Assembly (NCBI GenBank): GCA_964575455.1
Contig: CAZNRX010000007.1
Location: forward strand, 2,252 to 66,251
Direction: 5' to 3'
DNA from: an uncultured Anaerolineales bacterium
GTDB taxonomy: Bacteria > Chloroflexota > Anaerolineae > B4-G1
Length of the DNA: 64,000 nucleotides
A program made the translations under genes and the position numbers. Positions 26,221 to 50,072 of this stretch are shown here, piece after piece (within the stretch, counting starts at the first letter, position 1; each line of letters begins with the position of its first letter). A model generated the notes under the pieces. It did not search any database. It was not told where the DNA came from and worked only from the letters and a program-made list of their open reading frames with translations.

Positions 26221-26317
26221 GGCTTAGGCTTCGCACGCTTGGTGCTTCACCTCCCTCTTATCCCCCCCGGAGGGAGGGAAGGTGGCGCTGTGGGCACGTG
26301 CAACGCACCGGTGAGGG
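26221..26317. repeat. Intergenic composite repeat: GGCTTAGGCTTCGCACGCTT...CACGTGCAACGCA element carrying a nested C7-GGA-GGGAGGG hairpin core
   Basis: Same flanks as the 'empty' copy at 28285-28327. The core matches the in-ORF insertions. Confidence 0.8.
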
Positions 26318-26335
26318 GCGCGTCAGAAGGGTAGG

Positions 26336-28291
26336 ATGGAGAGGACCGTCCCCACCACCGGCAGTGAAGAGATCTCGCTCTACATGCGCACCTACTACTC
26401 CCTCCTGCGCACCACGGATGAGGTGCAGGTGCGCTCCTTCGTCGAATCACATCTGGGCATGAACTCATCCCTACACGTGGGGGCTCGCGATAAGGTACCG
26501 GACGTCGCGGTGCTCATCTACTGCTCGCTGCGCCTTCCACACGCGATTCGGCAGACCAGGTTGGTGGTGATGGGGCAGTCGGAGCGCGTCTTCGCTCGCC
26601 GCGGGTACGACAAGGTCGAGGAGTGGAGGCCGGTTGGAGCCCCAGGCCGTCGCCGCCGCACGTTCTTTGACGGTCACGAGACGATGGCAGCCTTCATCGC
26701 CAGCGTCTCCGATATCGACGACCTCATTCCGATGTTGACCGCTTTCCAGATTGAGTGGAACAAGATGTATCGGCGTCTGAAGGGTCACTCTCTATTGGAG
26801 AGATTGGAGGTACATCGCGATGTCCCCCCCTCTTATCCCCCCCAGAGGGGGGGAGGGAACACTCGCCCCCAGAGGGGGGGAGGGAACACTCGCCCCCAGA
26901 GGGACGGAGGGAACGCTCCCCCTCAAAGAGAGGTAGGGAATGCTCCCCCCGTCTTATTCCCCCCAGAGGGAGGGAGAGAAGCGCTGCGCCAAGAGATTGC
27001 AGAGGTGCTGGAGCTCAGCCTCGACGATCTAGGCCGCCTGGAATCGATCTGGGATGACCCGGGCCATTCGTTGTTCGATCTGCTGTGCGACGTGGGACGG
27101 GAGCCGAAGCAGTTCGCTGTGCGATTGTTGGCCGGCTCCCGGGTTGACTATCGGAAGGCCACGCGGCACTGGTGGGGTTTCATCGCCGACGCGTCGCCGG
27201 TCGACTTGAGCGAAAGGCCGGTTTACTTCATCTCCAGCAATGTGCACAGCGTGGTGAATATGCTGTCCGGATTTGCGCTACGGCGCGAGAAGGAGCTGAC
27301 ACGCCATCTCCGAGAGAAAGGCGATCATGAGCTGGCGGGTGGGGTGTCACCTGGAGAGTACGCTCGCATTCGCGATGGGGAGACCTCATCCCGGCTCGAG
27401 AATCTCCTCTACTTCATCCTCCGTGACTACATGGAGGTCCATCGCGACGACGAGATATGGGATGAGCGGGAGGAAGAGGAGGCCCTGTGCGGCATCAGGC
27501 ACATCGACAGCCACCACGTCTTTGACGTCGAGGCCCAGGTGATCGAGATGTGCCGCCTGTGCCCGGATTGGCTCGACCCGCGGTTGCGAGTGCCGGAGCT
27601 GGATAGGGCCGATGCAGCCGCTATGCTTCCTGGGCTTCGTGAGAGCGACGCCGTGATCGTCAACATCGACTACCCGCTGGGGATGGGAGCCTATCACATC
27701 CTTTCGCAGGTCGCTACAAGTGTCGATTCGCTTCGGGGCGTGTACAGCCTGGGCAAGGCCGCCACGCTCAACGGCCGCATCGGCGATGTGATGATCCCCT
27801 ATGTCGTTCACGACGAGCACTCCCGCAATACGTATCTGTTCAACAACTGTTTCACCGCCGCCAGCGTGGCGCCCTATCTTGTCCACGGCACGACGCTCGA
27901 CAATCAGAAGGCGATCAGTGTGCGAGGGACGTTTCTGCAGAACGAGCGCTATATGGATGTCTTCTACCGCGAGGGGTACACAGATATTGAGATGGAGGCC
28001 GGGCCATACCTCTCAGCTGTCTACGAGGCGGTGCGCCCCTCCCGCCATCCAACCAACGAGATCGTCACCCTCTACGCGGACACTGTGCCATTTGACGTCG
28101 GGATCATACACTACGCATCGGATACGCCGCTGGAGAAGGGCGGGTGGGATCAACCGAGGAACCTCGGTGCACAACGTCTCTCTTACTTCGGCGTGGATTC
28201 CACGTATGCGGCCACCGTGGCCATCCTGCGCCGGGTGCTGTGGCTGGAGACGCAGCGTGGGCAAGGGAAAGGTGCGTCGCATTGGGCTTAG
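26336..28291 (+). CDS. AMP-nucleosidase-like protein (PNP/UDP phosphorylase-fold C-terminal domain) with a long N-terminal extension
   Basis: The C-terminal VIVNIDYPLGMGA...LGKAATLNGRIGDVMIPYVVHDEH aligns by eye to the Amn catalytic region (ITLVNIGVGPSNA...IGHCGGLRESQAIGDYVLAHAYLRDDH). The N-terminal 250 aa are unassigned and contain a repeat insertion. Confidence 0.5.
   Translation: MERTVPTTGSEEISLYMRTYYSLLRTTDEVQVRSFVESHLGMNSSLHVGARDKVPDVAVLIYCSLRLPHAIRQTRLVVMGQSERVFARRGYDKVEEWRPVGAPGRRRRTFFDGHETMAAFIASVSDIDDLIPMLTAFQIEWNKMYRRLKGHSLLERLEVHRDVPPSYPPQRGGGNTRPQRGGGNTRPQRDGGNAPPQREVGNAPPVLFPPEGGREALRQEIAEVLELSLDDLGRLESIWDDPGHSLFDLLCDVGREPKQFAVRLLAGSRVDYRKATRHWWGFIADASPVDLSERPVYFISSNVHSVVNMLSGFALRREKELTRHLREKGDHELAGGVSPGEYARIRDGETSSRLENLLYFILRDYMEVHRDDEIWDEREEEEALCGIRHIDSHHVFDVEAQVIEMCRLCPDWLDPRLRVPELDRADAAAMLPGLRESDAVIVNIDYPLGMGAYHILSQVATSVDSLRGVYSLGKAATLNGRIGDVMIPYVVHDEHSRNTYLFNNCFTAASVAPYLVHGTTLDNQKAISVRGTFLQNERYMDVFYREGYTDIEMEAGPYLSAVYEAVRPSRHPTNEIVTLYADTVPFDVGIIHYASDTPLEKGGWDQPRNLGAQRLSYFGVDSTYAATVAILRRVLWLETQRGQGKGASHWA
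26824..26978 (+). repeat. In-frame repeat insertion: C7TCTTATC7-AGA-G7AGGG hairpin core with a 3x tandem 27-bp subunit
   Basis: Encodes PPSYPPQRGGGNTRPQRGGGNTRPQRDGGNAPPQREVGNAPPVLFPPEGGRE inside the AMN-like ORF. Read directly. Confidence 0.85.
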
Positions 28292-28327
28292 CGGCTGGCG
28301 CTTGGCACGTGCAACGCAGCGTTGTGA
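28285..28327. repeat. Intergenic GGCTTAG...CACGTGCAACGCA element ('empty' copy lacking the C-rich core)
   Basis: Sequence identity to the flanks of the 26221-26317 element. Confidence 0.7.
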
Positions 28328-28351
28328 GCCGCTGGAGATGAGGGATTCACT

Positions 28352-30760
28352 ATGACTACGTTTGTTGGACAGTCCGCCGCTCGCTTGGATGCGCGCGCCA
28401 AGGTCACGGGCGAGGCAAAGTACCCCGGCGATTTCGCTATGGAGGGTATGCTCCACGCCAAGATCCTCTTTGCCGGTCGGCCGCACGCTCGGGTGTTGAG
28501 CATCGACACGTCCGAAGCGGAGGATGTGCCGGGCGTGGTAGCGATCTTCACGGCCAGAGACGTGCCGGTGAACGAGTATGGCCTGCAGACGCGGGATCAA
28601 CCGGTGCTGTGTGGCCCCCCCCCTCTTGTCCCCCCCGGAGGGAGGGAGGATAGTGGCCCCTCTTCTCGTAACCCCCCTGGAGGGAGGGAGGATGGTGGTT
28701 CCCTCTCTCTTAACTCCCACGGAGGGAGCCCCCCCCTCGTATCCCCCCCGGAGGGAGGGAGGGAGGTGCCAGGAACTGATGTGGTCCGCTTCGTCGGTGA
28801 TCAGGTGGCTCTTGTGGTGGCGGAGAGCGAGGAGGCTGCTGCCCGCGCTCGAGGTCGGATCCACGTCGAGTATGAGGAATTGCCTTTCGTGACCGATCCC
28901 TTCCGAGCTCTTGAGCCAGACGCGCCGCAGCTCCACCCTGACCGACAGCCGAATGAAAGCCATCCGGAGTTGAGCACCGAGGGTAATCTCATCTGCCATC
29001 ATCAGATCCGCAAGGGCGACATGGACGCCGGGTGGGAGGCCGCGGACATCGTTGTCGAGGGTGAGTACCGAACGCCCGCTCAGGAGCACGCCTATCTGCA
29101 GCCGGAGGCTGGTCTCTCTTACATCGACGATCAGGGTCGTGTCACGGTGGTGGTGGCCGGCCAATGGACGTGGGAGGATCAACAGCAGATCGCACACGCA
29201 CTGGACCTACCACCAGAGCAGGTCCGAGTGATCTACCCGGCCATCGGAGGTGCCTTTGGTGGGCGCGAGGATATGTCCGTGCAGATCGTGCTGGCTCTGG
29301 CGGCCCATCGTCTGCAGCGCCCGGTCAAGATCGTCTGGAGCCGCGAGGAATCGATCGAGGGGCACTGCAAGCGGCATGCGATGTGGTTCCACTGCAAATG
29401 GGGCGCCACCCGGGAGGGAAAGCTGGTCGCCGCCGAGGTTCGAGTGATCGCCGATGGGGGCGCTTACTGCTACACCACCAACAAGGTGCTGGGCAACACA
29501 GCGATTACGTGCACGGGTCCCTACGAGTTTCCAAACGTCAAAGTTGACGTGGACGGCGTCTATACCAACAATCCACCGGCCGGGGCCTTCCGGGGCTTTG
29601 GAGCGCCGCAAGGCATCTTCGCTGCCGAGATGCAGATGAACAAACTGGTGGCCAAAATGGTTGGGGCGCTGGACGTGGACCCGGTTGGGCTGCGGGTCAA
29701 GAACTTGCTGCGTGATGACTCCCTGACCACGGTGCGCACCCCGCTGCCGGGTGGCGTCAGCCTGGTGGAGGTCACCCGGCGCTGTGCCCGTGCCATCGGA
29801 TGGAAGCAGACGGATGAGGAGGCGCCTGAGGCGCCATCGGGGTCGTCAGCGGCAGACACCCGCGAAGCGATTCGCAGTAAGCCCGACAGCGGCATTGGGC
29901 TGGCCGTTGGCTTCAAGAACGTCGGATTCTCCTTCGGGTATCAGGAGAGTTGCTGTGCCAGGATCGAGCTGCAGGGTGAGGAGGAGATCGAGCGAGCTAC
30001 CGTCAGCATTGGAAGTGCCGACGTGGGGCAGGGGGCTCATACCGTGATCCGGCAGATGGCGGCTGAGGCGCTTGACGTACCGTTGACGCGGGTGCGCATG
30101 GAGACATCGGACACGGGTACCAGCCCAGGCAGTGCCGGCTCCACGTCCGCATCCCGGATGACCTTCATGGCGGGCAACGCTGTGCGGAAGGCAGCGGGGG
30201 AGGTGCTGAACCGCTGGCGGAAGGGAGAGCGTCCGGCCATCACCGAGCAGACCTATCTGGCCCCAAGCACCACGCATTTTGATCCAGAGACGGGCGAGGG
30301 TCTGCCCAATTTCGCCTACGGGTACGTGGCGCAGGCCGTGGAGGTCGCGGTCGATGTGGAAACCGGCGAATTGGAGATCCGACGCGTCGTCTGCGTCGAT
30401 GACGTGGGCAAGGCGGTCAATCCTCAGCAGGTTGAAGGGCAGATTGAGGGGGGTGTGGCGCAGGCGGTGGGCTGGGCCACGTGTGAGAACTTCATCACCG
30501 ACGAGGGACGCGTGCTCACGCCACATCTGAGCACGTATCTGATCCCCACCATCGCCGACGTGCCGCGAAGCGTTGAATCGATCGTCGTGGAGAATCCAGA
30601 TCCTTGCGGCCCCTGGGGTGTGCGCGGGATGGGTGAGATGCCCTTCATCCCCCTGGCCCCGGCCCTGGTCGCTGCCGTCCACGACGCGACTGGGGTGTGG
30701 ATTGACGAGCTACCGCTGACCCCAGAGCGCGTGCTATGCGCCTTGAAGGGTCGTTCGTAG
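28352..30760 (+). CDS. Xanthine-dehydrogenase-family molybdopterin-binding large subunit (CoxL/XdhA-like)
   Basis: 802 aa with Ald_Xan_dh_C and C2 domain motifs (GGAFGGRED; GxGxPQG active-site region AFRGFGAPQG). Has a 55-aa in-frame insertion at 28613-28774. Confidence 0.85.
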   Translation: MTTFVGQSAARLDARAKVTGEAKYPGDFAMEGMLHAKILFAGRPHARVLSIDTSEAEDVPGVVAIFTARDVPVNEYGLQTRDQPVLCGPPPLVPPGGREDSGPSSRNPPGGREDGGSLSLNSHGGSPPLVSPPEGGREVPGTDVVRFVGDQVALVVAESEEAAARARGRIHVEYEELPFVTDPFRALEPDAPQLHPDRQPNESHPELSTEGNLICHHQIRKGDMDAGWEAADIVVEGEYRTPAQEHAYLQPEAGLSYIDDQGRVTVVVAGQWTWEDQQQIAHALDLPPEQVRVIYPAIGGAFGGREDMSVQIVLALAAHRLQRPVKIVWSREESIEGHCKRHAMWFHCKWGATREGKLVAAEVRVIADGGAYCYTTNKVLGNTAITCTGPYEFPNVKVDVDGVYTNNPPAGAFRGFGAPQGIFAAEMQMNKLVAKMVGALDVDPVGLRVKNLLRDDSLTTVRTPLPGGVSLVEVTRRCARAIGWKQTDEEAPEAPSGSSAADTREAIRSKPDSGIGLAVGFKNVGFSFGYQESCCARIELQGEEEIERATVSIGSADVGQGAHTVIRQMAAEALDVPLTRVRMETSDTGTSPGSAGSTSASRMTFMAGNAVRKAAGEVLNRWRKGERPAITEQTYLAPSTTHFDPETGEGLPNFAYGYVAQAVEVAVDVETGELEIRRVVCVDDVGKAVNPQQVEGQIEGGVAQAVGWATCENFITDEGRVLTPHLSTYLIPTIADVPRSVESIVVENPDPCGPWGVRGMGEMPFIPLAPALVAAVHDATGVWIDELPLTPERVLCALKGRS
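28613..28774 (+). repeat. In-frame repeat insertion: about 4 tandem ~40-bp units CCCTCTTNTC-C6-7-NGGAGGGAGGGAGGAT, with a C10 run
   Basis: Encodes GPPPLVPPGGREDSGPSSRNPPGGREDGGSLSLNSHGGSPPLVSPPEGGREV between the conserved DQPVL and VRFVGD blocks. Confidence 0.85.
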
Positions 30761-30847: not shown

Positions 30848-30877
30848 GTATATTGAAGGTACTGAAGGCAATTCACT

Positions 30878-34846: not shown

Positions 34847-35746
34847 ATGACGGCGTCAAGGGAGAGCGAGGGGAGACCCAAGATCGGCCTGGCTCTCAGC
34901 GGAGGAGGCGCGCGGGGTTTGGCCCACATCGGCGTGCTCAAGGTGCTTGAGCAAGAAGGGATGTCGATCGACTTGCTGGCGGGCACCAGTATGGGTGGGG
35001 TGGTGGCAGCGGCCTACGCCGCTGGGCTGACGCCTGGTTTTATGGAGCAGGAGGCCATGCGAATGACCAACCCGCGTCGGCTGCTGTCCCTGGCCGATCC
35101 AACCCTGCCGCGACGCGGGTTGTTTGAGGGACAGAAGGTGACCGAGTATCTGAGCCATCATCTGGGGGAATGCACCTTCGACAGCCTTCGGCGCCCTCTC
35201 AGCCTGATCGCCGTTGATCTGGAGGCGAGTGAGGTCGTGACGTTGAACGAGGGCCAGGTGATCGACGCCGTGCGGGCGACTATCGCTCTGCCAGGGCTCT
35301 TCAAACCGGTGGAACGGGAGTCACAGAGCGAGTCGCGGAGCGACAGGCAACTGCTTGTTGATGGAGGGCTGCTGGACAACCTTCCCGCCGACGTGACACG
35401 ACAGATGGGGGCTGACGTTGTGATCGCCGTGGATGTGATAGGCGACAACAGCACCTTCTCCGCGATGATCAAGACGTTACGTGAGCGTCGCTACGTGCCC
35501 GGCGGGCTGGCCAGTACCTTTGAGGTCATGCTGCGCTCGCTGGACGTCATGATGAAGGAGATCAATCGGCGCTGCCTGGTGGAAGCTGCTCCTGAGATCA
35601 TTATTCGCCCCGACGTCCCGCCGGACGTCAGCGTGCTGCTCGGCTTCACGCGGGCTGCCGATACAATAGCTATTGGGGAGAAGGCTGCTGTAGAGGCCCT
35701 TTCGGACATCCGGAGCGTGCTGGAGGCGACGGCGCCGGCAGTATGA
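34847..35746 (+). CDS. Patatin-like phospholipase
   Basis: GGGARG oxyanion motif, GTSMG (GxSxG) nucleophile, DGG catalytic Asp motif. Confidence 0.85.
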   Translation: MTASRESEGRPKIGLALSGGGARGLAHIGVLKVLEQEGMSIDLLAGTSMGGVVAAAYAAGLTPGFMEQEAMRMTNPRRLLSLADPTLPRRGLFEGQKVTEYLSHHLGECTFDSLRRPLSLIAVDLEASEVVTLNEGQVIDAVRATIALPGLFKPVERESQSESRSDRQLLVDGGLLDNLPADVTRQMGADVVIAVDVIGDNSTFSAMIKTLRERRYVPGGLASTFEVMLRSLDVMMKEINRRCLVEAAPEIIIRPDVPPDVSVLLGFTRAADTIAIGEKAAVEALSDIRSVLEATAPAV

Positions 35747-37678: not shown

Positions 37679-37688
37679 GGGTCTTAAG

Positions 37689-40600: not shown

Positions 40601-43600
40601 GACGACCCTGGAGACGCTCAGCAGCCAGATCGCTGCGGCCATTGAGAACGCACGTCTCTTCCAGGCCGAGCGCGAGAGGTCGGCGCAGCTAGCCACCGTC
40701 TCGAAGGTGGCCGAGAGCATCACTTCTACCCTGGATCCGCGGGTGGAGGCCCCCGATGATGGGTCGAAGGGCGATGTTGCCTTTTCACCGGTGCTGGACA
40801 GAACGGTGGAGATGATCACCGAGGCTTTCGACTACTATTACGCGAGCATCATGCTTCTGGACGAGGAGAGCGGCGACCTGCTCTTCAAGGCGGGTGCGGG
40901 CGGTTTCGCGGGCGGAACCGCCGAGCAGATGCCCCCCGATTTTCATCAAGCCATTGGGGAGGGGATGATAGGATGGGTGGCAGAGCAGGGAGAGACCCTG
41001 CTCGCCAATGATGTGAGCCAGGAGCCACGCTACATCCCCGCCTATTTGGATGAGACCAAGTCTGAGTTGGACGTACCGCTCAACTATCGCGACAAAGTGA
41101 TCGGTGTGCTGGATCTTCAGAGCAAGGAGCTCGACGCCTTCAACGAGCATGACGTCATGGCCATGGAGGCCCTTGCGGGCCACGTCGCCGCTGCCATTGA
41201 GAATGCGCGCTTATTTGGGGTTGCCAGGCGGCGTGTGGCTGAGCTCCGGGCGGTGCGTCAGGCGAGCCTCCAGCTTACCTCCACGCTGGAGCTTGAGCCT
41301 GTCCTGGAGACGATTCTCGAGAACGCCCTTAACCTAGTAGCAGCAGACGATGCTCACATCTTTCTCTACGACAGCGGGGATAGAAGCCATTCCCTGGGCC
41401 GGCGGATCACGGATCTGCCGGGAGCGGGAAGGAGGGAGGCGGGCAAGGGAGGAGCGGGGGGTGAAGAAGCAGGAAGGGTAGGGGCCCGAAGGGGAGATGA
41501 GCAGGGCGGGAAACTGACCTTCGGCGCTGCCATGTGGGACGGCGAGCGTCGCGAGGAGCCCATTGACACCATCCGACCGCACGGTCTGACGTACACCGTG
41601 GCCCGCCGAGGGGAGCGTATCGTTGTCTCCGATGCGATGAATCATCCGATTTTCGAGGGCCGTCGATGGGATGGCGCCATTGTCGGCCTGCCACTCACCA
41701 TCGGTGATGAGGTGCAAGGGGTGATGAACGTCGCCTATCAGCACCCTCACGTCTTCACCGACGAGGAGCTGTGGGTGCTTGATCTGCTGTCCGATCAGGC
41801 AGCTATCGCCATTCGAAACGCCAGGCTTTACGACGAAGCCCGAGATCGGGCTCTGGAGCAGGAGACCTTGCGGGAGGCGGCTCTTGCCCTGACGACGGCC
41901 CTGGAACGCGACGAGGTCGTCGAGCGCGTGTTGGCGCAGACGCAGCGTGTAGTGCCCTACGATACCGCCTCGGTGATGCTTCTCTCCGGAGACTGCGTGG
42001 ACATCGTGGGTGGTCGAGGGTTTCCGAACCTGTCCGAGATTGTAGGGGTGTCCTTCCCACTGAGTGATGAGCATCCGAACCGAGAGGTAATTCGGACTGG
42101 CGAGCCCGTCATCCTTGAGGACGCACCAGAGGCCTATGAGGCTTTTCGTCGAGAACCTCACGCCCTGGCCGAGATTCGCTCCTGGCTGGGCGTGCCGATG
42201 CTCGTGGGAGATCGGGTGATCGGCATGATCGCTCTCGACAAGTGTACGCCTGGATTCTACACGGACGAGCATGCCCGTCTGGCGCGGGCGTTTGCTGCGC
42301 AGGCGGCTGTCGCTTTCGAAAATGCTCGGCTCTACGAAGCGGAACAGGAGCAGCGGGAGCTATCCGAGCGGCTCCGTGAAACAGCTCTTCTCCTGAACAG
42401 GAGCTTGGATCTCCAGGAGGTTCTGGAGATGATCCTGGAGCAGTTGGCCAGCGTCGTCAACTATCACAGCGGAAGCGTCCAGATCCTGCAGGATGACAGA
42501 GGTCCACGTGGGAGGGCCACCGAGGTGATTGCCGCCCGGAACCTGCCCGGGAAGGAGCTAGGGCACGCTTACCCGCTGGAGCACTATGCGTACAACCGTC
42601 GTCTCGTCGAGGAAGCGGAGCTCGTCGTGATCGACGATGTGCGCGAGAACAGCCAAGGCTGGCGTGGGGTCGGAGGGTTGGAGCACGTGCGGGCCAACGT
42701 CGGTGTGCCCCTCCAGGTCCGAGATCAGGTGATTGGCATCCTCACGGTGGATAGCTGCCATCCAGAAGCTTATGCGGAGGATGACGCCCGCCTGATACAA
42801 GCGTTTGCCCAACAGGCGGCTGTAGCTATCGAGAACGCCCGGCTCTACGAAGAGGCTCGGAAACGAGCACTGGAGCAGCAGACGTTGCGGGAAGCGGCCC
42901 TGGCGATGACGACGGCCTTGGAGCGGGATGAGGTCGTCGAACGCATCTTGGCTCAGCTACAGGAGGTCGTCCCATACGACACGGCGTCGGTCCAGTTGCT
43001 TCAAGATGGTCACGGTGATGGACGCCATTACCTGGAGATTGTAGGCGGGAGGGGCTTTCCCAATTTGGGGGAGCTGGTGGGCATTGCCTTTGACCTGACG
43101 AATGGGGATCACCCGAATCGGACGGTCATTTGCACGCGTCAACCGCTCATCCTGAGAGACGCTGGGGCGTCGTACGAGGAATTCCGGCGTGAGCCGCACA
43201 GACAGGCGGGTATGCGATCGTGGCTCGGCGTGCCTATGCTGGTCGGCGACCGATTGATCGGCATGATAACCCTGGACAAGCGAGAGCCAGAGTTCTACAA
43301 TCACGAGCATGCCAGGCTAGCCGAGGCGTTCGCGGCACAGGCTGGGATCGCTATTGAGAACGCCCAGCTGCATCAGGAGACGGTGAGACAGCTGGCGGAG
43401 ACAGAGGTTCTCCGTGAGACGATGCTGGCAGCCGCCTCCACGCTCGATTTTGACGAGGTGCTGGCTCGGACCATTGACGTCCTGGAGCGCGCCATGGGCA
43501 TTGAGTACCTGGGCTTCATGCTTCCTGAGGAGGATCGAAGCAGCGGTGAGACCTCCATGGTGAGCCATCCCTGCGTGCTGGGCTTCACGCCGCCCGAGGA

Positions 43601-45710
43601 GGGATATCGCTTCCCGGTTGATGAATGCTTGACCGGTCAGGTCTATCAGACTGGGGAACCCAGGATCCTATCTGACGTTCGCGAAGAGGGGCCTTACGCT
43701 GTTGCCGCTGAAGAGGTGCGTTCCGAGCTTGCTGTCCCTGTCAAAGCGGGCGACGAGGTCGTGGCGGTCCTCAACCTGGAGAGTGCACATCCCGGTGCGT
43801 TTGACGAACAGGATCTCGCCTTCTACACTGCGATTGCTGGTCAGCTCGGCATCGCGATGGAAAACGCCCAACTCTTCGAGGCGGAGCGGAAGCAGCGACA
43901 GCTGTCTGAGGCCCTGGAGAAGGCGGCTGTTGCGGTGAGCAGCACCTTGGAGCTTGAGCAGGTACTTGACCGTATCCTCAAGCAGGTCGAACAGGTCGTC
44001 CCTGGGGATAGCTTCAACATCATGCTGATCGAAGACAGTGAAGCTCACATCGTTCGCTCGCGAGGTTATGAGAGGCTGGGGGTTATGGAGGCGGTGAGGA
44101 CGTACTCTCTTCCTGTTTCAGACTATCCTCACTGGGTAGAGATGTCGCGCAGCGGCGAGCCTGTCGTGATCTCGGACACAGCTTTGGATGACGGTTGTTC
44201 ATTCAGCTACTGGAGTGGTCGCGAGGGTGGGGATAGACGCCAGGACGAGGATGGACGCCATCCTTGGGACTGGTTAAGGTCCTACGTGGCCGCACCTATT
44301 CGCGTGGGCGACACGACGGTTGGCTTTCTCAACGTGGACGGTCTGGAGCCGGGGCAGTTCAGTTTCAGTGATGCGGTACGATTGGAGACGTTCGCCAGCC
44401 ACGCTGCGACCGCCATAGAGAACGCTCGGCTGTATGAGAGGCTGCGTGATCACGCGGAGACCCTGGAGCTGCGTGTGGCGGAGCGTACGGCACAGCTCCA
44501 GGCTCAGTACGGGCGACTGGAGGCGATACTCGACAGCACCGTCGACGGTATCGTGGTCACGGGCCCCGATGGTGAGCTTGTGCTGGCGAATCCTGTCGCC
44601 CGAGAGTGGCTCACTCAGACACTTTCACCCGAGGAAGCCGGTCTGCTGCGCCTGACAATTCGGGAGATGGCCCAGCGTGCGGGTGGAGGACCGCCCGGGG
44701 AGGATCTGGAGGAAGTGCTCGAGTTGACCGGCCTGGACCTGCAGCTGCGGGCTGCGACTATTCACAAGCCAGGGTCGGAGGAGGACGGACACCATCCGGA
44801 TGCCAAGGCTGGAGATCCGGCCGCGGTCGTGGCGATTCACGACATCAGCCACCTCAAAGCCCTGGACCGCATGAAGTCTCGTTTTGTCTCCAACGTTTCT
44901 CATGAGCTGCGCACGCCGATTGCGACAATCAAGTTGTTTGTCCACTTGATGCGGAAGCAGCCGGGGAAGTGGCAAGAGTATCTGGAGCCCCTGGCTCAAG
45001 AGGCGGAGCATCAGGCGGATCTTGTGGGGGATATCCTGGAGATCTCCCGCGTGGATGTGGGCCGATTGGAGATCAAGCGAGAGCCGGCGAACCTGGAGGG
45101 GCTGGTTGATATAGTGGTAACCAACTGCGAGACGCGGGCGCAGGAACGGGGACTGACGCTTGAGCACGGGGATGTCGGGAGGCCTTGTGCTCCGGGTGAG
45201 GATGTCCGCGCGCGGCTTGATGCTGGGGACGCGCAAGGCACCGAGACACTGTCCGCGCTCCCTGTGGCCATGGTGGACACTCAACGTATGACACAGGTTC
45301 TGGACAACCTGATCAACAACGCCATAAGGTATACGCCGGAAGGCGGCAAGATCACGGTATGGACCGGGAGGGCCGAGGTCGGAGGGCGTGCATGGGGGAC
45401 GGTGACAGTGGCGGACACGGGTATGGGGATACCGGAGGACGAGCTGCCGCACGTCTTCGAGAGGTTCTTCCGTGGGGAGAAACCTCGCACGATGCAGATC
45501 TCCGGTACGGGCCTAGGCCTGGCCATTGTGAAGGAGATCATCGAGCTGCACGGAGGCCACGTGACGGTCGAGAGCGAGGTGGGCGAGGGCAGCCGCTTCA
45601 CCGTCTGGTTGCCGGCCGTAGACGCCTTGGCGGGAGTGGACGATGCCGCGGAGCTACCAGGTCCCCGATCAGAACTGGACGGGGAGCGGGACAAGGGAGC
45701 TGTGGGGTAG
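37689..45710 (+). CDS. Giant cytoplasmic sensor histidine kinase: PAS-PAS-(GAF x ~11)-PAS-HisKA-HATPase_c, 2673 aa
   Basis: Eleven GAF-terminal IENARLYEE-type motifs counted. H-box HELRTPIATI; N/G boxes NLINNAIRYTP and GTGLGLAIVKE. No TM segments seen. Confidence 0.85.
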   Translation: MGENRILAEETYRSLIERANDGIVIIQDMQFKYVNPRLAEILGCGVEELLDKPFADYVHPQDRAKVVDRYQRRMRGEGLPGTSPIPTIYQVKLRRKDGSDVLVELNAGLTTYQGEPADLAIVRDITDRGLAPHARRLEQEVRKRQLYLEGVLESTPDAIVTLDPDHRVSEWNPGAEKLFGYSSEEAVGRDLDALIAGPDPEMFEQATKLTWHVLAGEVVPRAESTRYRKDGTPVNVILAGAPIEVEDESVGAVVAYTDITQRKQVEEALRRRTQQLEALRDVGLDIIGELELDELLQSIVKQGCRLLGVKGGSLYLVDGCRQGKRPSSRYLVGTKRARRRHAPEAEGGLEQVVSYGYKRDRTGSRITRGEGTAGKAWQEGKPVVVDDYHHWEGRAAEWEDEELTASLAVPLKHGDQIVGTLGFDAVTEDRSFDEDDVWLTSLFANQATIAIENARLYEETAYRLAETEALRKVMLAAASTLDLDQLLERSLRVIHRALDIKHLSFSFPDDSGEFMVVHPSQIGFSVPPGEALRLPMDASVAGRAYVNQSPVLIKDTSETPYYHEYKPEMRSELTVPVFIGDEVVGVLNAESPEVGAFDEGTLHIFEAVAAQLATAMENVRLHEETERRASRLRAVNRVARRANSLLHLDDLVEAAYQEIDSTFEVDAFFLALYDREEDELDFRLSVDEGTREPPLRRPLEPGLTASVVSKGEPLLIYDYVCEQEREDLPPAETWGTGKISRSWLGVPMRAAGEVTGVISVQAYRSFAYDDEDEQLLSTIADQVAMALEKTRLYEESQRRASQAALLYEVGRHVSSELEPDILLDTIVSSVRESFDYHNVILMLLDGWVGAAGEGLKPSPREGGYTSSRGYTSSHDEHAAEERLRMQSIAGAYVGILPPDISLAIGEGMIGYAALSGETQLSNDVSTDPHYVRKATENTKSELAVPIKSGDRVIGVLDLQDDELGAFDQSDVTTLETLSSQIAAAIENARLFQAERERSAQLATVSKVAESITSTLDPRVEAPDDGSKGDVAFSPVLDRTVEMITEAFDYYYASIMLLDEESGDLLFKAGAGGFAGGTAEQMPPDFHQAIGEGMIGWVAEQGETLLANDVSQEPRYIPAYLDETKSELDVPLNYRDKVIGVLDLQSKELDAFNEHDVMAMEALAGHVAAAIENARLFGVARRRVAELRAVRQASLQLTSTLELEPVLETILENALNLVAADDAHIFLYDSGDRSHSLGRRITDLPGAGRREAGKGGAGGEEAGRVGARRGDEQGGKLTFGAAMWDGERREEPIDTIRPHGLTYTVARRGERIVVSDAMNHPIFEGRRWDGAIVGLPLTIGDEVQGVMNVAYQHPHVFTDEELWVLDLLSDQAAIAIRNARLYDEARDRALEQETLREAALALTTALERDEVVERVLAQTQRVVPYDTASVMLLSGDCVDIVGGRGFPNLSEIVGVSFPLSDEHPNREVIRTGEPVILEDAPEAYEAFRREPHALAEIRSWLGVPMLVGDRVIGMIALDKCTPGFYTDEHARLARAFAAQAAVAFENARLYEAEQEQRELSERLRETALLLNRSLDLQEVLEMILEQLASVVNYHSGSVQILQDDRGPRGRATEVIAARNLPGKELGHAYPLEHYAYNRRLVEEAELVVIDDVRENSQGWRGVGGLEHVRANVGVPLQVRDQVIGILTVDSCHPEAYAEDDARLIQAFAQQAAVAIENARLYEEARKRALEQQTLREAALAMTTALERDEVVERILAQLQEVVPYDTASVQLLQDGHGDGRHYLEIVGGRGFPNLGELVGIAFDLTNGDHPNRTVICTRQPLILRDAGASYEEFRREPHRQAGMRSWLGVPMLVGDRLIGMITLDKREPEFYNHEHARLAEAFAAQAGIAIENAQLHQETVRQLAETEVLRETMLAAASTLDFDEVLARTIDVLERAMGIEYLGFMLPEEDRSSGETSMVSHPCVLGFTPPEEGYRFPVDECLTGQVYQTGEPRILSDVREEGPYAVAAEEVRSELAVPVKAGDEVVAVLNLESAHPGAFDEQDLAFYTAIAGQLGIAMENAQLFEAERKQRQLSEALEKAAVAVSSTLELEQVLDRILKQVEQVVPGDSFNIMLIEDSEAHIVRSRGYERLGVMEAVRTYSLPVSDYPHWVEMSRSGEPVVISDTALDDGCSFSYWSGREGGDRRQDEDGRHPWDWLRSYVAAPIRVGDTTVGFLNVDGLEPGQFSFSDAVRLETFASHAATAIENARLYERLRDHAETLELRVAERTAQLQAQYGRLEAILDSTVDGIVVTGPDGELVLANPVAREWLTQTLSPEEAGLLRLTIREMAQRAGGGPPGEDLEEVLELTGLDLQLRAATIHKPGSEEDGHHPDAKAGDPAAVVAIHDISHLKALDRMKSRFVSNVSHELRTPIATIKLFVHLMRKQPGKWQEYLEPLAQEAEHQADLVGDILEISRVDVGRLEIKREPANLEGLVDIVVTNCETRAQERGLTLEHGDVGRPCAPGEDVRARLDAGDAQGTETLSALPVAMVDTQRMTQVLDNLINNAIRYTPEGGKITVWTGRAEVGGRAWGTVTVADTGMGIPEDELPHVFERFFRGEKPRTMQISGTGLGLAIVKEIIELHGGHVTVESEVGEGSRFTVWLPAVDALAGVDDAAELPGPRSELDGERDKGAVG
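38073..38095 (+). repeat. GGCTTAGCTCCGCACGCT-family element inside the giant histidine kinase ORF (encodes GLAPHARR)
   Basis: Sequence match to the 26221, 28285 and 36689 copies. Confidence 0.55.
40228..40311 (+). repeat. In-frame G-rich hairpin repeat with a 2x tandem 18-bp GGGGATACACGTCATCCC unit inside a GAF domain
   Basis: Encodes GAAGEGLKPSPREGGYTSSRGYTSSHDE. Read directly. Confidence 0.7.
41417..41512 (+). repeat. In-frame purine-rich repeat (GGGAGCGGGAAGGAGGGAGGCGGGCAAGGGAGGAGCGGGGGG...) inside a GAF domain
   Basis: Encodes GAGRREAGKGGAGGEEAGRVGARRGDEQGGK. A near-identical 32-bp copy lies intergenic at 50041-50072. Confidence 0.75.
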
Positions 45711-45713
45711 GCT

Positions 45714-46109: not shown

Positions 46110-46117
46110 CGGCGTCC

Positions 46118-46738: not shown

Positions 46739-46741
46739 GAC

Positions 46742-47863
46742 CTATCCTCCCGAGGTTATCCCTTCCGCTGCATGCCCTAGTACGGTGATGGTGAAGTCAT
46801 AGGGGACGTCTCCATGGGTGGCGAGTGAGCAACTGAAGGTCACCTCTGCTCCCGGGGCGAGCCCCTCTTCGACCAGCCCGCTGCCGCTCGAAGAGCCTGG
46901 GGCGGATGGACCTGCTTTGGTCTTGCGGAATCCCGTGACTGTCCCTTCAGCGTCATACGTGGTGATAAAGACATCCACCGAATCGGCAGCGCGTTGTGTG
47001 CTCGTATTCTTGACCGTGCCGTTCACTTGGAAATGTGGGCCTGAGGGGTTGCCCTCGGCCGCCACCACCGACAGTGGCACATAGGCGCTGGCGACGGCCC
47101 CAGCCTCCTGCCCGCGTATGACGGTCGCCTGATAGCTGACCCAGTCTGGTGGTGGTGTCGTGAACAGGACTCTGAAGGGCGAAAGCTCTCCGGCTGGTAT
47201 GATATCCATGGCGACGAACGTGTTGGCCTCCATCACCGGCTCGCTGGCGGCATTCAGAAGTGCTACCTGTACCTGCACGTTCGTCAGCGTGACGGCTGTC
47301 GTGTTGGCGACCTCTCCCAGGGCTAGAAGGCTGTCAACAGGCGTCTCGTAGAATCCCATGCCCTGGATTTGGATCGGTTGTGGCGTGGGCGTGGGCAGGA
47401 GTTGGCCTGGCGTGGTCTGACCTGGTTCCTCTTGGCGGGGAATGACCAGTCGTTGTCCTACTTGAAGGAATTGGGGGTTCTCAACCCCGTTGGCTTTCTG
47501 GAGGGCCTCTACGCTCACTCCGAAATCGAAAGCGATGGCCTGCAGTGTGTCCCCCTGTTGGACGACGTGTACGATCGGCGTGGGCGTGATGGTCGGTGTC
47601 GCCGTATCAGGCTGTGAACCGGAGGGCACTTCTGTGGCTGGGCGATGTAGGGGGGTGGTGAGGTGGGTGGCATCCGACACGGCGGTCGGCGTGTCTGCGG
47701 ACAGGGATGCCCGAGTAGGTTCCGGTGTGACGACCTGACCACAGGCCGCCAGCAAGACCACGGTTCCCATGAGGAGGGTGAGAAGCAATGGTAGGCCGAG
47801 TGCCTCGCTTGCGATCTTCCGATGGTCGATCATCCATTCATCAGCTGATCTATCCTCAAACAT
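46742..47863 (-). CDS. LysM peptidoglycan-binding domain membrane-anchored protein
   Basis: N-terminal TM segment, Pro/Thr linker, LysM (VVQQGDTLQAIAFDFGVSVEALQKANG...GQRLVIP), and a C-terminal beta-rich domain. Confidence 0.7.
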   Translation of the reverse strand: MFEDRSADEWMIDHRKIASEALGLPLLLTLLMGTVVLLAACGQVVTPEPTRASLSADTPTAVSDATHLTTPLHRPATEVPSGSQPDTATPTITPTPIVHVVQQGDTLQAIAFDFGVSVEALQKANGVENPQFLQVGQRLVIPRQEEPGQTTPGQLLPTPTPQPIQIQGMGFYETPVDSLLALGEVANTTAVTLTNVQVQVALLNAASEPVMEANTFVAMDIIPAGELSPFRVLFTTPPPDWVSYQATVIRGQEAGAVASAYVPLSVVAAEGNPSGPHFQVNGTVKNTSTQRAADSVDVFITTYDAEGTVTGFRKTKAGPSAPGSSSGSGLVEEGLAPGAEVTFSCSLATHGDVPYDFTITVLGHAAEGITSGG

Positions 47864-48107
47864 CCTGGACCTTACGGCTGGCGATTATACCATGCCTGTG
47901 GTTATCGGCCCAGTGACCATCGGATCTTGGATGTTCGGAGAATGACAAGAGACTCTGCAGGATTCGCATCGTTTGACTTTTGGGGCGTTTGACGGTATCT
48001 TATAGATATGTTGCATTGCTCCCACGATTGACGGCGGCCTAGGCCGCTGTGTTTCCGGGCTTCGCGTGCTACAGTGGCCTTTGCTGTTCCGAGCCAAGGA
48101 GGTAGCT

Positions 48108-48296
48108 ATGGTTGAGGATCTGCGGGAACATATGGTTGAGGAGGATCTGGAGGTTGAAGAGGAGGGCCTTACTCAGGAATTCCTCAACCTGAAGCCGTGG
48201 CAACGACTGGTCTTGGCCTTGCTGCTTTTCTTCGATGTGGCGCTTTGTGGATGTATGGGGTTGGTTATGATGGGGCGTGTGCTGCCACCGTTCTAA
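48108..48296 (+). CDS. Small hypothetical protein (acidic N-terminus plus one TM helix)
   Basis: Strong AAGGAGG RBS 7 nt upstream of the ATG. No homology assigned. Confidence 0.35.
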   Translation: MVEDLREHMVEEDLEVEEEGLTQEFLNLKPWQRLVLALLLFFDVALCGCMGLVMMGRVLPPF

Positions 48297-48299
48297 TGA

Positions 48300-50003
48300 A
48301 TGAATAGCGATACGACGCTTGTCTGGACATCCGCTCCCCGCAAGACAGCTCAGGTCCATTTTCCTGACGGACGTACATTCGAGGCTCCTGTAGGCACGCC
48401 GTTGGAGCATTACTTCCGCGCCGCCGTTGGGGAATCGACGATCCCCTTCATCGCGGCGCTGGTCGACGGCGATCTGCGGGAGTTGAACTACAAGATATGG
48501 ACTGATGCCACAGTCGAGCCTTTGTTCCTGTCCGATTCAGATGGCATTCGCATCTATCGTCGATCCCTCTCGTTCCTGTTGGTCACCGCGATCCGGGAGC
48601 TTTTTCCGGAGGCTTTCGTCTTCATCGATCATTCGCTTCCATTTGGAGGTTTCTTCTGCGAGGTGGGGGGACGAAAGAATTTCAGCGAGGAGGAGTTGGC
48701 ACAGATAGAGAGCAGGATGCACGAGATTGTTGAGCAGGACTTTAGCATCCGACGAGAGAGGGTCCCGCTCGACGAGGCCATCGAGATGTTCCGTCAGCGG
48801 AGTGAAACGGATAAGTCCAAGCTGCTGAAGCACCGAGAAAGGGAAGACCTTAAGCTCTATAATCTGCGTGATTCGCGCGACTACTTCCACGGCTATATGG
48901 TGCCGTCGACCGGGTATCTGCGGCATTTCACCCTGCAGAAATGGCCTCCCGGTTTCATACTGCAGTATCCTCGCCGGACACATCCCACAAAGCTCGTATC
49001 GGCGCGTAACTACCCCCAACTCACGGCGATCTTCCGCGAGTACGGGAAGCGGCTGCGTCTGCTGGGCGTTGGCTCTGTGAGTGGGTTGAATGAAGCTGTC
49101 GACAGCGGGCGTATACGGGAGATCGTTCTCGTCTCCGAAGCGCTTCACGAGCAGCGCATCGCCCAGGTTGCCAGCCAGATCAGCCGTCAAGAGAAGGTGC
49201 GGCTGGCGTTGATCGCCGGGCCCTCAGCCTCTGGCAAGACCACCTTCTCCAAGCGTCTTTCTATTCAGTTGTTGGCCGAGGGCATTCGGCCGTTCCCTCT
49301 TGCGCTGGATGATTACTTCGTCGATCGAGAGAAGACGCCTCGGGATGAGGACGGCAACTTCAACTTCGAGGCGCTAGAGGCTCTCGATGTCGCGCTCTTC
49401 AACCAGAATCTGCAGGCCCTGATGCGCGAGGAGGAGGTGCAGTTGCCGCGCTTCAACTTCAAGACGGGCAGGCGGGAGAAGGGCGAGAAGGTCAAGCTCG
49501 GCCCCGATCACATCATCATTGTGGAGGGTATTCACGGTCTGAACCCCAGGCTCGTGGCTGGCGTGCCGGACGAGCGCATTTACCGCGTCTATGTCTCTGC
49601 CTTGACCCAACTGAACATTGATCGCCACAATCGCGTGCCGACGACGGACACGCGCCTCATCCGGCGCATCGTGCGCGACGCGACCTACAGAGGATACACG
49701 GCCGAAGAGACGTTGGAGCACTGGGATATGGTGCGAAGGGGGGAGAAGGAGTTCATTTTCCCCTATCAGGAGCACGCCGACATCATGTTTAACTCAGCGC
49801 TGGTCTACGAGCTGGCTGTGCTCAAGGAATTGGCCGAGCCGCTCCTGCTGCAGGTGAAACCATCGAGCCCGCGACGTGTGGAGGTCAAGCGGCTGCTCGC
49901 CCTCCTACAATGGTTCGAGCCGTGCGTCATGGAGTTGGTCCCCGACAACTCCATTCTGCGGGAGTTTATCGGGGGCTCGATTCTGCGCGACTACATCCCC
50001 TGA
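48300..50003 (+). CDS. TGS-domain / uridine-kinase (PRK-family) fusion protein
   Basis: N-terminal ThrRS/TGS-like beta-grasp region. Central Walker A GPSASGKTT and a uridine-kinase-like fold. Confidence 0.7.
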   Translation: MNSDTTLVWTSAPRKTAQVHFPDGRTFEAPVGTPLEHYFRAAVGESTIPFIAALVDGDLRELNYKIWTDATVEPLFLSDSDGIRIYRRSLSFLLVTAIRELFPEAFVFIDHSLPFGGFFCEVGGRKNFSEEELAQIESRMHEIVEQDFSIRRERVPLDEAIEMFRQRSETDKSKLLKHREREDLKLYNLRDSRDYFHGYMVPSTGYLRHFTLQKWPPGFILQYPRRTHPTKLVSARNYPQLTAIFREYGKRLRLLGVGSVSGLNEAVDSGRIREIVLVSEALHEQRIAQVASQISRQEKVRLALIAGPSASGKTTFSKRLSIQLLAEGIRPFPLALDDYFVDREKTPRDEDGNFNFEALEALDVALFNQNLQALMREEEVQLPRFNFKTGRREKGEKVKLGPDHIIIVEGIHGLNPRLVAGVPDERIYRVYVSALTQLNIDRHNRVPTTDTRLIRRIVRDATYRGYTAEETLEHWDMVRRGEKEFIFPYQEHADIMFNSALVYELAVLKELAEPLLLQVKPSSPRRVEVKRLLALLQWFEPCVMELVPDNSILREFIGGSILRDYIP

Positions 50004-50023
50004 GGCAGCAGCTTGGGCCACGG

Positions 50024-50072
50024 CGGATCGCGGATCCGCAGGGAGCGGGAAGGGGAGGTGGGCAGGGCGAAG
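50024..50072. terminator. GCGGATC-GCG-GATCCGC hairpin followed by a G-rich repeat copy, at a convergent gene junction
   Basis: Read directly. Candidate bidirectional terminator plus repeat element. Confidence 0.4.

Follow-up and report, generated by a model that had tools for sequence, protein, structure and literature searches.

A short C7/G7 repeat lies in frame within three unrelated enzyme genes of an uncultured Anaerolineales bacterium

Several families of short repeat are known to enter bacterial coding sequence. The Rickettsia palindromic elements RPE-1 to RPE-10 measure about 105-146 bp, carry a family-specific conserved peptide and occur in Rickettsia only (Ogata et al. 2000, as reviewed in PMC10969869, PMC3184786). 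REPs are imperfect palindromes of 20-40 bp that usually occupy the space between genes or downstream of them and in a minority of cases lie within one; their abundance is species-specific and some families have no dedicated transposase (PMC3733652). BRE of beta-proteobacteria, BOX/RUP/SPRITE and ERIC are MITE-like elements of 100-300 bp with terminal inverted repeats (PMC3184786).

In this study, we followed up a sequence-only reading of a window of 64,000 nucleotides from an uncultured Anaerolineales bacterium, in which hairpin-forming repeats had been proposed to be inserted in frame into at least five unrelated ORFs. We find a C7/G7 repeat that occupies one intergenic spacer and lies, in frame, within three unrelated enzyme ORFs, encoding a DUF6909 protein (previously called AMP-nucleosidase-like), an XDH molybdopterin (Mo) subunit and a UbiB/ABC1 kinase. 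The four loci, each verified where it had been reported, and their host genes are as follows.

26248-26287, + strand: single C7/G7 unit, intergenic (nhmmer, E=7.7e-11)
26336-28291, + strand: host gene 1, DUF6909 protein (Pfam DUF6909, E=7.9e-205)
26823-26983, + strand: array in the DUF6909 ORF (nhmmer, tandem-repeat analysis)
28352-30760, + strand: host gene 2, XDH/CO-dehydrogenase-family molybdopterin subunit (Pfam Ald_Xan_dh_C, MoCoBD_1, MoCoBD_2)
28613-28774, + strand: array of 3-4 units with a period of about 42 nt, in the XDH Mo-subunit ORF (nhmmer, tandem-repeat analysis)
35906-37678, + strand: host gene 3, UbiB/ABC1 atypical kinase (Pfam ABC1, E=1.1e-69)
36355-36442, + strand: two C7/G7 units with a period of 42 nt, in the UbiB/ABC1 ORF (nhmmer)

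All four loci share a C7-TCTTRT-C7-N3/4-G-run-A-G-run core and fall within 10 kb. Every one is on the + strand, contrary to the proposal that both orientations occur here; copies antisense to the host gene were found on other contigs only. The complete repeat reads C7-TCTTRT-C7-N3/4-G7-A(TGAA)-G7, about 33-45 nt, and the window copies have a degenerate right arm, GGAGGGAGGGAGG. We counted 8 occurrences of the motif CCCCCNNGAGGGRGGG where 0.29 would be expected, a count that none of 100 shuffles reached. The eight C7/G7 units are 69-100% identical to one reference, and the window loci match a profile of the repeat with nhmmer E-values of 1e-8 to 1e-11. By our own calculation, the clustering of four loci in 10.2 kb of the 64-kb window has a P of about 0.014.

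The host genes are not pseudogenes, as their ORFs are intact and dN/dS, measured against an independently assembled metagenome contig with about 91% DNA identity to the window (L007), is 0.10 for the DUF6909 gene, indicating purifying selection, 0.16 for the XDH gene and 0.11 for the UbiB gene. All three arrays keep the frame and introduce no stop in it, and orthologues of each host are without the segments, both as the sequence-only reading had held. In the DUF6909 gene, whose product matches the Pfam family in two separate stretches, full units at 26823-26859 and 26944-26983 accompany a 27-nt sub-repeat present 3.8 times in tandem at 26839-26940, and the array encodes VPPSYPPQRGGGNTRPQRGGGNTRPQRDGGNAPPQREVGNAPPVLFPPEGGRE (aa 163-215). 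L007 carries this array, too, but with two 27-nt units fewer (54 nt shorter), and three further relatives (L023, L024 and L026) have 9-14 unrelated residues at this position. The XDH array adds about 46 codons (aa 90-138) to the a/b-hammerhead domain; the segment is missing in every full-length orthologue among 120 homologues, which read CGP-GSxKPxAD-VVRF, and L007 has an unrelated 93-nt insert in the same loop and no C7/G7 copy. Between AQVHxATL and PVVVKVQRP the two UbiB units insert 25 codons; L024 and L026 are without the segment, and the L007 gene is 57 nt shorter and without the core. Aligned to solved structures, aa 88-142 of the XDH protein correspond to 1 residue of 3hrd_A and aa 147-174 of UbiB to 3 residues of 7cy2_A, placing both segments in loops. 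In-frame indels of 4-16 aa are frequent in loops of all the lineages compared.

The intergenic unit lies in a 131-nt spacer that follows the stop of an FAD/FeS subunit gene at 26205 and precedes the DUF6909 start at 26336. The FAD/FeS - DUF6909 - XDH operon holds three of the four loci. The intergenic unit is kept at the orthologous place in L007, and in L023, L024 and L026 the spacer upstream of the DUF6909 gene measures 21-97 nt and has no C7/G7 copy. Together with the syntenic relatives, whose UbiB and DUF6909 orthologues are without the window segments, these comparisons support a repeat that is lineage-specific, its presence and length varying between genomes about 91% identical. An artefact of assembling or sequencing homopolymer-rich reads is scarcely credible as their source. 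Errors do tend to arise in long runs of C or G, and two contigs that are 99.9% identical (L003 and L029) differ twice inside the element, but the intergenic unit and the DUF6909 array recur at the same loci in the independently assembled L007, assemblies from several projects contain the element, and the frame is always kept.

Two further host sites had been claimed in a giant histidine kinase, and a further intergenic copy at 50041-50072. Searched on either strand with nhmmer (--max, E<=10), the segments 40228-40311, 41417-41512 and 50041-50072 gave no match to the C7/G7 profile. The kinase inserts are real and in frame; they consist of other repeats, and the intergenic site belongs to a second repeat family.

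40227-40313, + strand: giant histidine kinase, insert that keeps the frame within a GAF domain, not of the C7/G7 family (nhmmer null, TRF)
41373-41507, + strand: another GAF domain of that kinase, insert of 45 codons that keeps the frame, not of the C7/G7 family (nhmmer null, homologue alignment)
50018-50070, + strand: second copy of the second repeat, GGCGGATCRCGGATCYGC-GGGAGCGGGAAGG (pairwise alignment with 41397-41450)

The first insert contains an 18-nt unit, GGGGATACACGTCATCCC, twice in tandem at 40273-40308 (TRF); L007 has four units at this site and L026 no insert. The second insert contains a copy of the second repeat at 41397-41450, and the six homologous GAF proteins that span its position read FLYD(x)G-LTFGAA and have no insert. 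The copy at 50018-50070 differs from that starting at 41401 by 3 mismatches across a 32-nt core and lies between convergent genes, a PRK-family gene (stop 50003) and a beta-propeller gene on the - strand ending at 50092, with no terminator-like site. The second repeat was undetected in all fetched loci, even in L024, whose sequence spans the orthologous spacer.

Frame offsets 0, 1 and 2 are all used by the C7/G7 units, and the peptides differ by frame; the identity therefore resides in the DNA and not in the peptide. Stop codons are nearly missing from the element in all six frames. The sequences thus support a dispersed DNA-level repeat that has no conserved peptide. Were the segments independent low-complexity expansions in situ, or Pro/Gly-rich linkers selected as peptide, their likeness would be convergence with no copying of DNA. 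The loop indels noted above and the unrelated in-frame tandem repeats of the kinase gene would fit such convergence, yet the 33-nt core is nearly exact across unrelated genes and genomes, three frames and elsewhere the opposite strand yield different peptides, and one copy is intergenic. Because of this DNA-level identity across frames, convergence is effectively refuted and very improbable.

Further copies occur in other Anaerolineae genomes, some of them within genes. A strict pattern of the repeat was found in at least 6 genome stretches and at least 15 metagenome stretches; L007 matches it, yet its sample lies outside the scanned collection. An Anaerolineales MAG has the core at 3 intergenic sites, 2 C-terminal tails (which it lengthens; one belongs to an RtcA protein and the other to an ammonium-transporter protein) and 1 unassigned site, and all four copies on its contig CAYQZG010000003.1 are co-oriented. 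On three contigs a PGA_cap gene carries the core with 0, 1 or 3 extra 30-nt units. On another Anaerolineae contig the core lies inside an AcnX gene, where a filled and an empty allele (about 92% DNA identity) differ by replacement of 15 nt by 45 nt. A Mu-like transposon, too, has the core in its leader, where it is more conserved than its flanks and strictly conserved across contigs of 44-65% GC.

Such conservation could point to a nucleic-acid element under selection, acting in mRNA or DNA as a hairpin, i-motif or G-quadruplex to tune translation speed, mRNA stability, transcription or replication in the operons concerned. The G-quadruplex potential that sequence predicts for the right arm GGAGGGAGGGAGGGAGG, the intergenic copy common to the window and L007, and the concentration of three of four loci in one operon would also agree. 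We nevertheless consider a functional element improbable, since the XDH and UbiB copies are missing in L007 and hence dispensable. Presence and length differ even at this close distance, and the C-runs have decayed in unit 2 of the arrays. Rfam has no family matching the repeat, and no terminator-like feature was found at it. As the sequence-only reading had supposed, the C-runs and G-runs are mutually complementary, but the predicted hairpins, with MFEs from -6 to -12 kcal/mol, are no more stable than those of dinucleotide shuffles (z -1.3 to +0.7).

How copies reach new places is a separate matter. One possibility, which we hold to be doubtful though real, is a non-autonomous element of the REP/REPIN or MITE type moved in trans by a dedicated hairpin-recognising enzyme encoded elsewhere in the genome. 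This could be a Y1 HUH transposase of the RAYT/IS200-IS605 type, working on hairpins in single-stranded DNA, or be supplied by the Mu-like DDE transposon in whose leader the core lies. HUH transposition is biased by replication strand, and the co-orientation of copies on a contig would fit it; Y1 enzymes are compatible with the missing target-site duplication, and the element's presence in several distinct lineages and its strict conservation in the transposon leader would likewise agree. The size and imperfect palindrome fit REPs, for which intragenic copies are documented (PMC3733652). Against mobilisation in trans, no Y1, RAYT or other transposase was found in the window or beside the MAG and metagenome copies, nor any transposase in the fetched loci (about 250 kb); neither a GTAG nor a CGTC tag is present in the core; and 12 independent sites share no conserved target motif in their 5' or 3' flanks. 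Filled-versus-empty comparisons, the AcnX alleles included, show no target-site duplication; in each of them, the XDH and UbiB junctions among them, a few target codons are replaced instead of being left intact. Within the Mu-like transposon, about 200 nt separate the core from the end and place it outside the terminal repeats, so the repeat is not a MITE derivative of it.

The account we favour, and think somewhat probable, is a short palindromic repeat family dispersed in Anaerolineae as selfish or neutral DNA of the intragenic REP/RPE type, shaped by a survival filter and slippage and presumably spread by templated copying. Copies arise at new places, both in intergenic spacers and in loop-coding parts of genes. 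Those that survive would be only the ones that add a multiple of three bases, are free of stops in the host frame and fall in tolerant loops, and they would be translated as Pro/Gly/Arg/Glu-rich loop extensions whose sequence is set by the frame. Once established, arrays gain and lose whole units of 27, 30 or 42 nt, a change that we attribute to slipped-strand mispairing. The most tentative step is the route of the presumed spread: templated copying linked to replication or repair, with a neighbouring copy as its source and microhomology in the C/G runs as its site, seems likelier than classical transposition because codons are replaced without target-site duplication and the four window loci share one strand within 10 kb, with no transposase in the neighbourhood. 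The replaced flanking codons could, rather than recording insertion, reflect later divergence of fast-evolving loops. The Mu-like transposon, with the core in its leader, could carry the sequence between genomes.

Conservation of the frame points to translation of the inserts. Yeast mitochondrial GC clusters, or 'byp', are short, mobile, GC-rich, hairpin-forming inserts in protein-coding genes that the ribosome bypasses, and their frame need not be preserved. The C7/G7 copies are likewise short GC-rich inserts within coding genes, and by this formal analogy the segments might go untranslated, through programmed bypassing as in T4 gene 60 and the byps or through removal at the RNA level. We regard this as extremely improbable. 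The length that each coding copy adds is divisible by three and free of stops in the host frame, and the variable units are all of 18, 27, 30 or 42 nt, a pattern expected only with translation; unlike byps, the C7/G7 copies always preserve the frame.

The repeat resembles, without matching, each described system. Coding minisatellites or VNTRs, arising by slipped-strand mispairing, likewise have units that are multiples of three bases and vary in number among close relatives, but they are local, whereas the core of the C7/G7 unit is dispersed among unrelated genes and genomes. BRE, BOX/RUP/SPRITE and ERIC are also dispersed repeats fused in frame, internally or 3'-terminally, to chromosomal ORFs; the C7/G7 repeat is several-fold shorter and has no terminal inverted repeats or target-site duplication. 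Intragenic REPs share a short imperfect palindrome partly inside genes and differ in the tag, which the core is without, and in the RAYT, which was not found in the window or beside the MAG and metagenome copies; three of four window loci being coding is atypical for REPs. The likeness to RPEs that the sequence-only reading drew holds for behaviour: both are palindromic, intergenic as well as in frame in unrelated housekeeping genes, with intact host ORFs, fold-compatible inserts and no associated transposase. Membership of an RPE family does not follow, as there is no sequence relationship, the units are 27-45 nt (33-45 nt for the complete repeat, against about 105-146 nt), they are read in three frames and no peptide is conserved. 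Unlike RPEs, the repeat also forms tandem arrays with copy-number variation, in free-living Anaerolineae of about 62% GC.

Altogether, the phenomenon is not new as a kind, in-frame intragenic REPs and MITEs being known outside Rickettsia (PMC3733652, PMC3184786, PMC10969869). What the Anaerolineae carry is a coding palindromic repeat of the REP/RPE-like kind that is much shorter than the RPEs.

The C7/G7 repeat is a family of 33-45 nt elements with the core CCCCCC-TCTTRT-CCCCCCC-(R)G(N)-GGGRGGGAGG, present in a window of ~62% GC whose best-named protein homologues come from Anaerolineae/Chloroflexota metagenome-assembled genomes (MAGs). A repeat search recognized a single family of eight ~39-nt units, which match its reference at 69-100% identity. 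All are on the plus strand, with starts at 26250, 26825, 26946, 28618, 28660, 28731, 36358 and 36400. An nhmmer profile made from these units and run with filters off (E<=10) placed them in four loci, with no other copy, and none on the minus strand, in the window:

26248-26287, plus strand, intergenic C7/G7 copy
26823-26983, plus strand, C7/G7 array in the DUF6909 ORF
28616-28768, plus strand, C7/G7 array in the XDH Mo-subunit ORF
36356-36435, plus strand, C7/G7 array in the UbiB/ABC1 ORF
26839-26940, 27-nt tandem unit, 3.8 copies (Tandem Repeats Finder)
28630-28728, 42-nt tandem unit, 2.4 copies (Tandem Repeats Finder)

An earlier sequence-only reading had reported the C7/G7 repeat at these four places, where it is indeed visible in the sequence and forms one family by both searches. 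That reading also described copies in both orientations; in the window there is only one, and antisense copies occur on other contigs, in PGA_cap and AcnX genes. The motif CCCCCNNGAGGGRGGG occurs eight times in the window against 0.29 expected, a count reached by none of 100 shuffles. Units of 42 nt make up both the XDH and UbiB arrays, and overall unit length is 27-45 nt, or 33-45 nt when sub-repeats are excluded. The right arm of the window copies is degenerate (GGAGGGAGGGAGG). With respect to the host ORFs, units begin at offsets 0, 1 and 2, and one DNA sequence accordingly yields PPSYPPQRGGG, PPVLFPPEGGRE and PPPLVPPGGRE in its three frames (insert-spanning examples are PPLVPPGGR and PPSGGEGDGAPHPVPPSGGEGAPVVVK). 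Because the peptide differs with the frame, the C7/G7 repeat is a repeat at the level of DNA and not a conserved peptide. The encoded peptides were rejected as database queries, since matches to an 11-residue low-complexity peptide cannot reach significance among 5.8 billion sequences.

The three host genes are identified by their Pfam domains:

26336-28291, host ORF 1, DUF6909 (E=8e-205)
28352-30760, host ORF 2, Ald_Xan_dh_C and MoCoBD_1/2
35906-37678, host ORF 3, ABC1/UbiB

Each carries a C7/G7 insert whose length is a multiple of three and which contains no stop codon. A check for pseudogenes found all three ORFs intact, with dN/dS between the window and L007, a syntenic relative, of 0.10 for DUF6909, 0.16 for XDH and 0.11 for UbiB. 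These genes are therefore under purifying selection and are not pseudogenes.

That the segments are insertions, as the sequence-only reading had proposed, is borne out by syntenic loci found through XDH homologues, namely L007 (~91% nucleotide identity) and L023, L024 and L026 (77-79% amino acid identity), and by solved structures. In XDH, the full-length orthologues among 120 homologues all read DQPVLCGP-GSxKPxAD-VVRFVGDQ across the loop, where the window protein has 49 extra-looking residues, a net gain of 46 codons; five orthologues have small lineage-specific extras of their own at this loop (P0002, P0020/P0032, P0043, P0094, P0109). The L007 loop (L007 9890-9985, orthologous to window ~28625-28765) holds a different 93-nt in-frame insert that has no second copy in the window and the collected loci. 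In UbiB, L024 and L026 read ATLH-D(G/D)xPVVVKVQ and lack the insert; relative to them, the window has 25 extra residues and L007 has 6. At the DUF6909 site, L023, L024 and L026 have 9-14 unrelated residues, L007 has 32 and the window has 50, the difference between the L007 and window arrays being exactly two 27-nt units. Of the four syntenic loci, L007 alone has the intergenic copy found in the window. Residues 88-142 of XDH correspond to a single residue of nicotinate dehydrogenase (3hrd_A). For UbiB, residues 147-174 correspond in 7cy2_A to three residues of the turn that precedes the VAVK strand. We took loop placement from this mapping onto PDB chains in place of an AlphaFold2 model of XDH built on 50 close orthologues, which was poor (mean pLDDT 55.6; insert modelled as coil, pLDDT 25-34) and was given no weight. 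As a separate observation, in-frame indels of 4-16 amino acids are common in loops of many orthologous proteins when window 21195-52542 is compared with L007, L023, L024 and L026, one example being the ESQ(G/S) repeats of a patatin gene (35318-35343). The two GAF histidine kinases on either side of this region in the window are both missing from L024.

The sequence-only reading had counted at least five unrelated ORFs with in-frame copies. Three ORFs and one spacer stand; the two sites in the multi-GAF histidine kinase fall outside the family, and neither these nor the site near 50 kb gives an nhmmer match to C7/G7. Other repeats lie there instead. The kinase (ORF 37689-45710, 2673 aa) has three lineage-specific in-frame inserts unrelated to C7/G7:

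38643-38732, kinase insert 1; at this place L007 has (RGLANA)x6, an 18-nt tandem
40227-40313, kinase insert 2; an 18-nt tandem unit, two copies in the window, four in L007 and none in a more distant relative
41373-41507, kinase insert 3; 45 codons containing a copy of a second repeat, GGCGGATCRCGGATCYGC-GGGAGCGGGAAGG

Insert 3 is missing from all six homologous GAF domains that cover its position, and the only other copy of the second repeat is intergenic, at 50018-50070. Elsewhere in the window, an 18/17-nt tandem of 6.6 copies (ACGCTGTCACCCGGGTCG) occupies 21072-21188, directly 3' of a bactofilin-domain gene (minus strand, stop at 21195) and upstream of a URO-D family gene, where it adjoins the end of L007 synteny (~21325). 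Since its last units are 17 nt long, it is probably non-coding.

Beyond the window, the same DNA sequence is dispersed among unrelated sites and genomes. Run against public collections, the strict pattern CTCNTRTCCCCCCCRGNGGGNGGGA returned 15 metagenome contigs, copies in the Anaerolineales MAG CAYQZG01 and one copy in an Anaerolineae MAG, counts that are lower bounds, given that L007 fits the pattern and its sample lies outside the scanned collection; viral contigs gave no match to the pattern. A Streptomyces match (L004; nhmmer E=0.18) was set aside as a GC-rich palindrome that arose by chance. With the profile, six sites were found in CAYQZG01, three of them intergenic inside gene clusters, two in the C-terminal tails of an RtcA protein and an ammonium-transporter protein, and one unassigned. 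In L002, from this MAG, two composite copies lie 2.5 kb apart (360-425 and 2930-2995), each with a second palindrome, GCCGTCGGGACGACGGC, interposed between the first C-run and the remainder of the repeat.

Two further genes provide natural alleles. The PGA_cap (CapA-type) gene carries an antisense element in five contigs, with zero, one and three extra 30-nt units, (RDRHPPRWGG)n, in L017, L020 and L015, respectively. In contigs L003 and L029, an aconitase-X (AcnX) gene contains a complete 45-nt copy in antisense orientation, and the orthologue in L027/L028 (92-94% protein and ~92% DNA identity) has an empty site; the filled allele has 45 nt in place of 15 nt (LESGA), with no target-site duplication (TSD). 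Complete copies in L003, L011 and L013 have the form C7-TCTTGT-C7-loop-G7-ATGAA-G7, a two-tier hairpin. Although L003 and L029 are 99.9% identical across 8 kb, their elements (L003 5646-5687, L029 10674-10713) differ at two positions (CAT CCC CCC CAC versus CAA CCC CCC CCC), through either homopolymer sequencing error or a hot spot of mutation. The AcnX proteins of L003, L029 and L027 also share a 33-aa lineage-specific insert (IEIAGCYPKCVETHSKTRFNGFGVTAARFNAPNN, residues ~290-325 of the L003 protein) that is missing from other orthologues and unrelated to C7/G7.

On nine contigs of 44-65% GC (L008, at 3937-3972, L014, L009/L018, L010, L016, L019, L021 and L022), an identical core of 33-36 nt, CCCCCCCTCTTATCCCCCCC-GGTG-GGGGGGGAGGAGGATAA, lies within a three-gene Mu-like transposon, ~200 nt in from one end. 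Its genes encode a small Zn-ribbon/HTH protein, a DDE transposase with rve and Mu-transpos_C domains, and an AAA_22 ATPase. Relative to the first of these genes the core is divergent. Both the core and a downstream GGCATnGCGGTTCCnGCTGTC box are more conserved than the surrounding DNA, and there is no Rfam match.

The hairpin character claimed at the outset is upheld in one respect, as the C-runs are complementary to the G-runs and pair to give a 20-40 bp imperfect palindrome of the kind described for repetitive extragenic palindromes (REPs). However, neither single units nor the whole XDH array folded, as DNA or as RNA, more stably than dinucleotide shuffles, and folding was therefore not used as evidence. 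Rfam scans, at gathering thresholds for the window and by E-value for 13 loci, gave only spurious sub-threshold miRNA-like hairpin matches, and near the intergenic copies neither terminators nor promoters were predicted more often than expected.

How, then, does the element spread? It has been gained or lost recently between genomes ~91% identical in DNA, its arrays expand and contract by whole units, and its inserts preserve the reading frame: the net inserts (138, 75 and 123 nt) and the copy-number-variable units (18, 27, 30 and 42 nt) are all multiples of three. As the element is nearly stop-free in all six frames, length is the main filter on coding insertion. We infer that inserts survive only in tolerant loops and are translated. 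Several findings speak against classical transposition. Pfam found no transposase in the 47 ORFs of the window, nor one adjoining copies elsewhere save the Mu-like transposon on unrelated contigs; no conserved insertion target or TSD was found; and the filled and empty junctions of AcnX, XDH and UbiB show 6-15 nt, or a few target codons, replaced. The main rival explanation is mobilization in trans by an unseen enzyme. Local templated copying is favoured by the clustering of the four loci in 10.2 kb out of 64 kb (P ~0.014 by our calculation), by their all being on one strand, and by the likeness of the window-specific XDH and UbiB arrays, which have in common the TCTTGT variant, the frame and a two-unit layout. 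The bases just upstream of these two arrays are similar (GCTGTGTGG versus GCTGTATGAG), and those at UbiB differ from the ancestral CTGCACGAC. We therefore favour a model in which the element would be inserted by templated copying associated with replication or repair, after which slippage may alter the number of units. It is also conceivable, if rather doubtful, that the C7/G7 double hairpin represents an active, previously undescribed class of mini mobile elements of Chloroflexota, ferried between genomes by Mu-like DDE transposons that carry a strictly conserved leader copy, copied and pasted locally from a template with neither transposase nor TSD, and still remodelling surface loops of core enzymes into protein-length polymorphism between strains.

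In-frame palindromic repeats are established for Rickettsia palindromic elements (RPEs), with further reports among BRE, intragenic REPs and several MITEs (PMC10969869, PMC3184786, PMC3733652). The likeness to RPEs suggested by the sequence-only reading holds for in-frame insertion into unrelated functional ORFs. It fails for length, since RPEs as published are ~105-146 bp (PMC3184786) and the C7/G7 unit is 27-45 nt, and for peptide, since each RPE family has a conserved peptide in a fixed frame, whereas C7/G7 is read at offsets 0, 1 and 2 and antisense. REP/REPIN elements share the 20-40 bp imperfect palindrome, with the reservation on folding energy, yet have a GTAG or CGTC tag at one end, which the C7/G7 core lacks and which is not conserved in the sequence flanking 12 independent sites, and are associated with a RAYT (Y1 HUH transposase) flanked by the repeat, of which there is none among the 47 window ORFs or the ORFs adjoining copies in the fetched loci. 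They also have a high copy number and are mostly extragenic; of the six C7/G7 copies in CAYQZG01, three are intergenic, two lie in C-terminal tails and one is unassigned. MITEs are 70-300 bp long and have TSDs as well as terminal inverted repeats in common with an autonomous IS; C7/G7 has 33-45 nt per unit, no terminal inverted repeats and no TSD at AcnX, XDH or UbiB, and the sequence shared with the Mu-like transposon lies ~200 nt internal and is not terminal. With coding minisatellites (VNTRs), the arrays share head-to-tail, multiple-of-three units that vary between close relatives. Thus, the C7/G7 repeat belongs to neither the RPEs, the GTAG/CGTC REPs nor the MITEs, yet behaves like them. 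The literature that we searched contained no description of such repeats for Chloroflexota or Anaerolineae. The repeat is a real and fairly clean case of palindromic repeats within coding sequence, in a phylum new to them, if a narrower case than first claimed.

Such segments disturb gene calling, as in L007, where the JGI call of XDH begins at an internal start 3' of its unrelated insert though the full ORF is open, and they split Pfam domain matches in MAGs. The filled, empty and length-variant alleles occur naturally in enzymes with solved homologues (the XDH family, the UbiB/ABC1 kinase, AcnX and PGA_cap), and could be used to probe how loops tolerate random Pro/Gly-rich insertions and to distinguish between two routes by which short hairpins might spread, transposition and templated insertion linked to replication. 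Most records to date of selfish palindromic DNA inside functional genes come from reduced intracellular bacteria and from a few proteobacteria, in elements three- to four-fold longer than C7/G7. If our reading holds, the RPE phenomenon would extend to a free-living, high-GC phylum.
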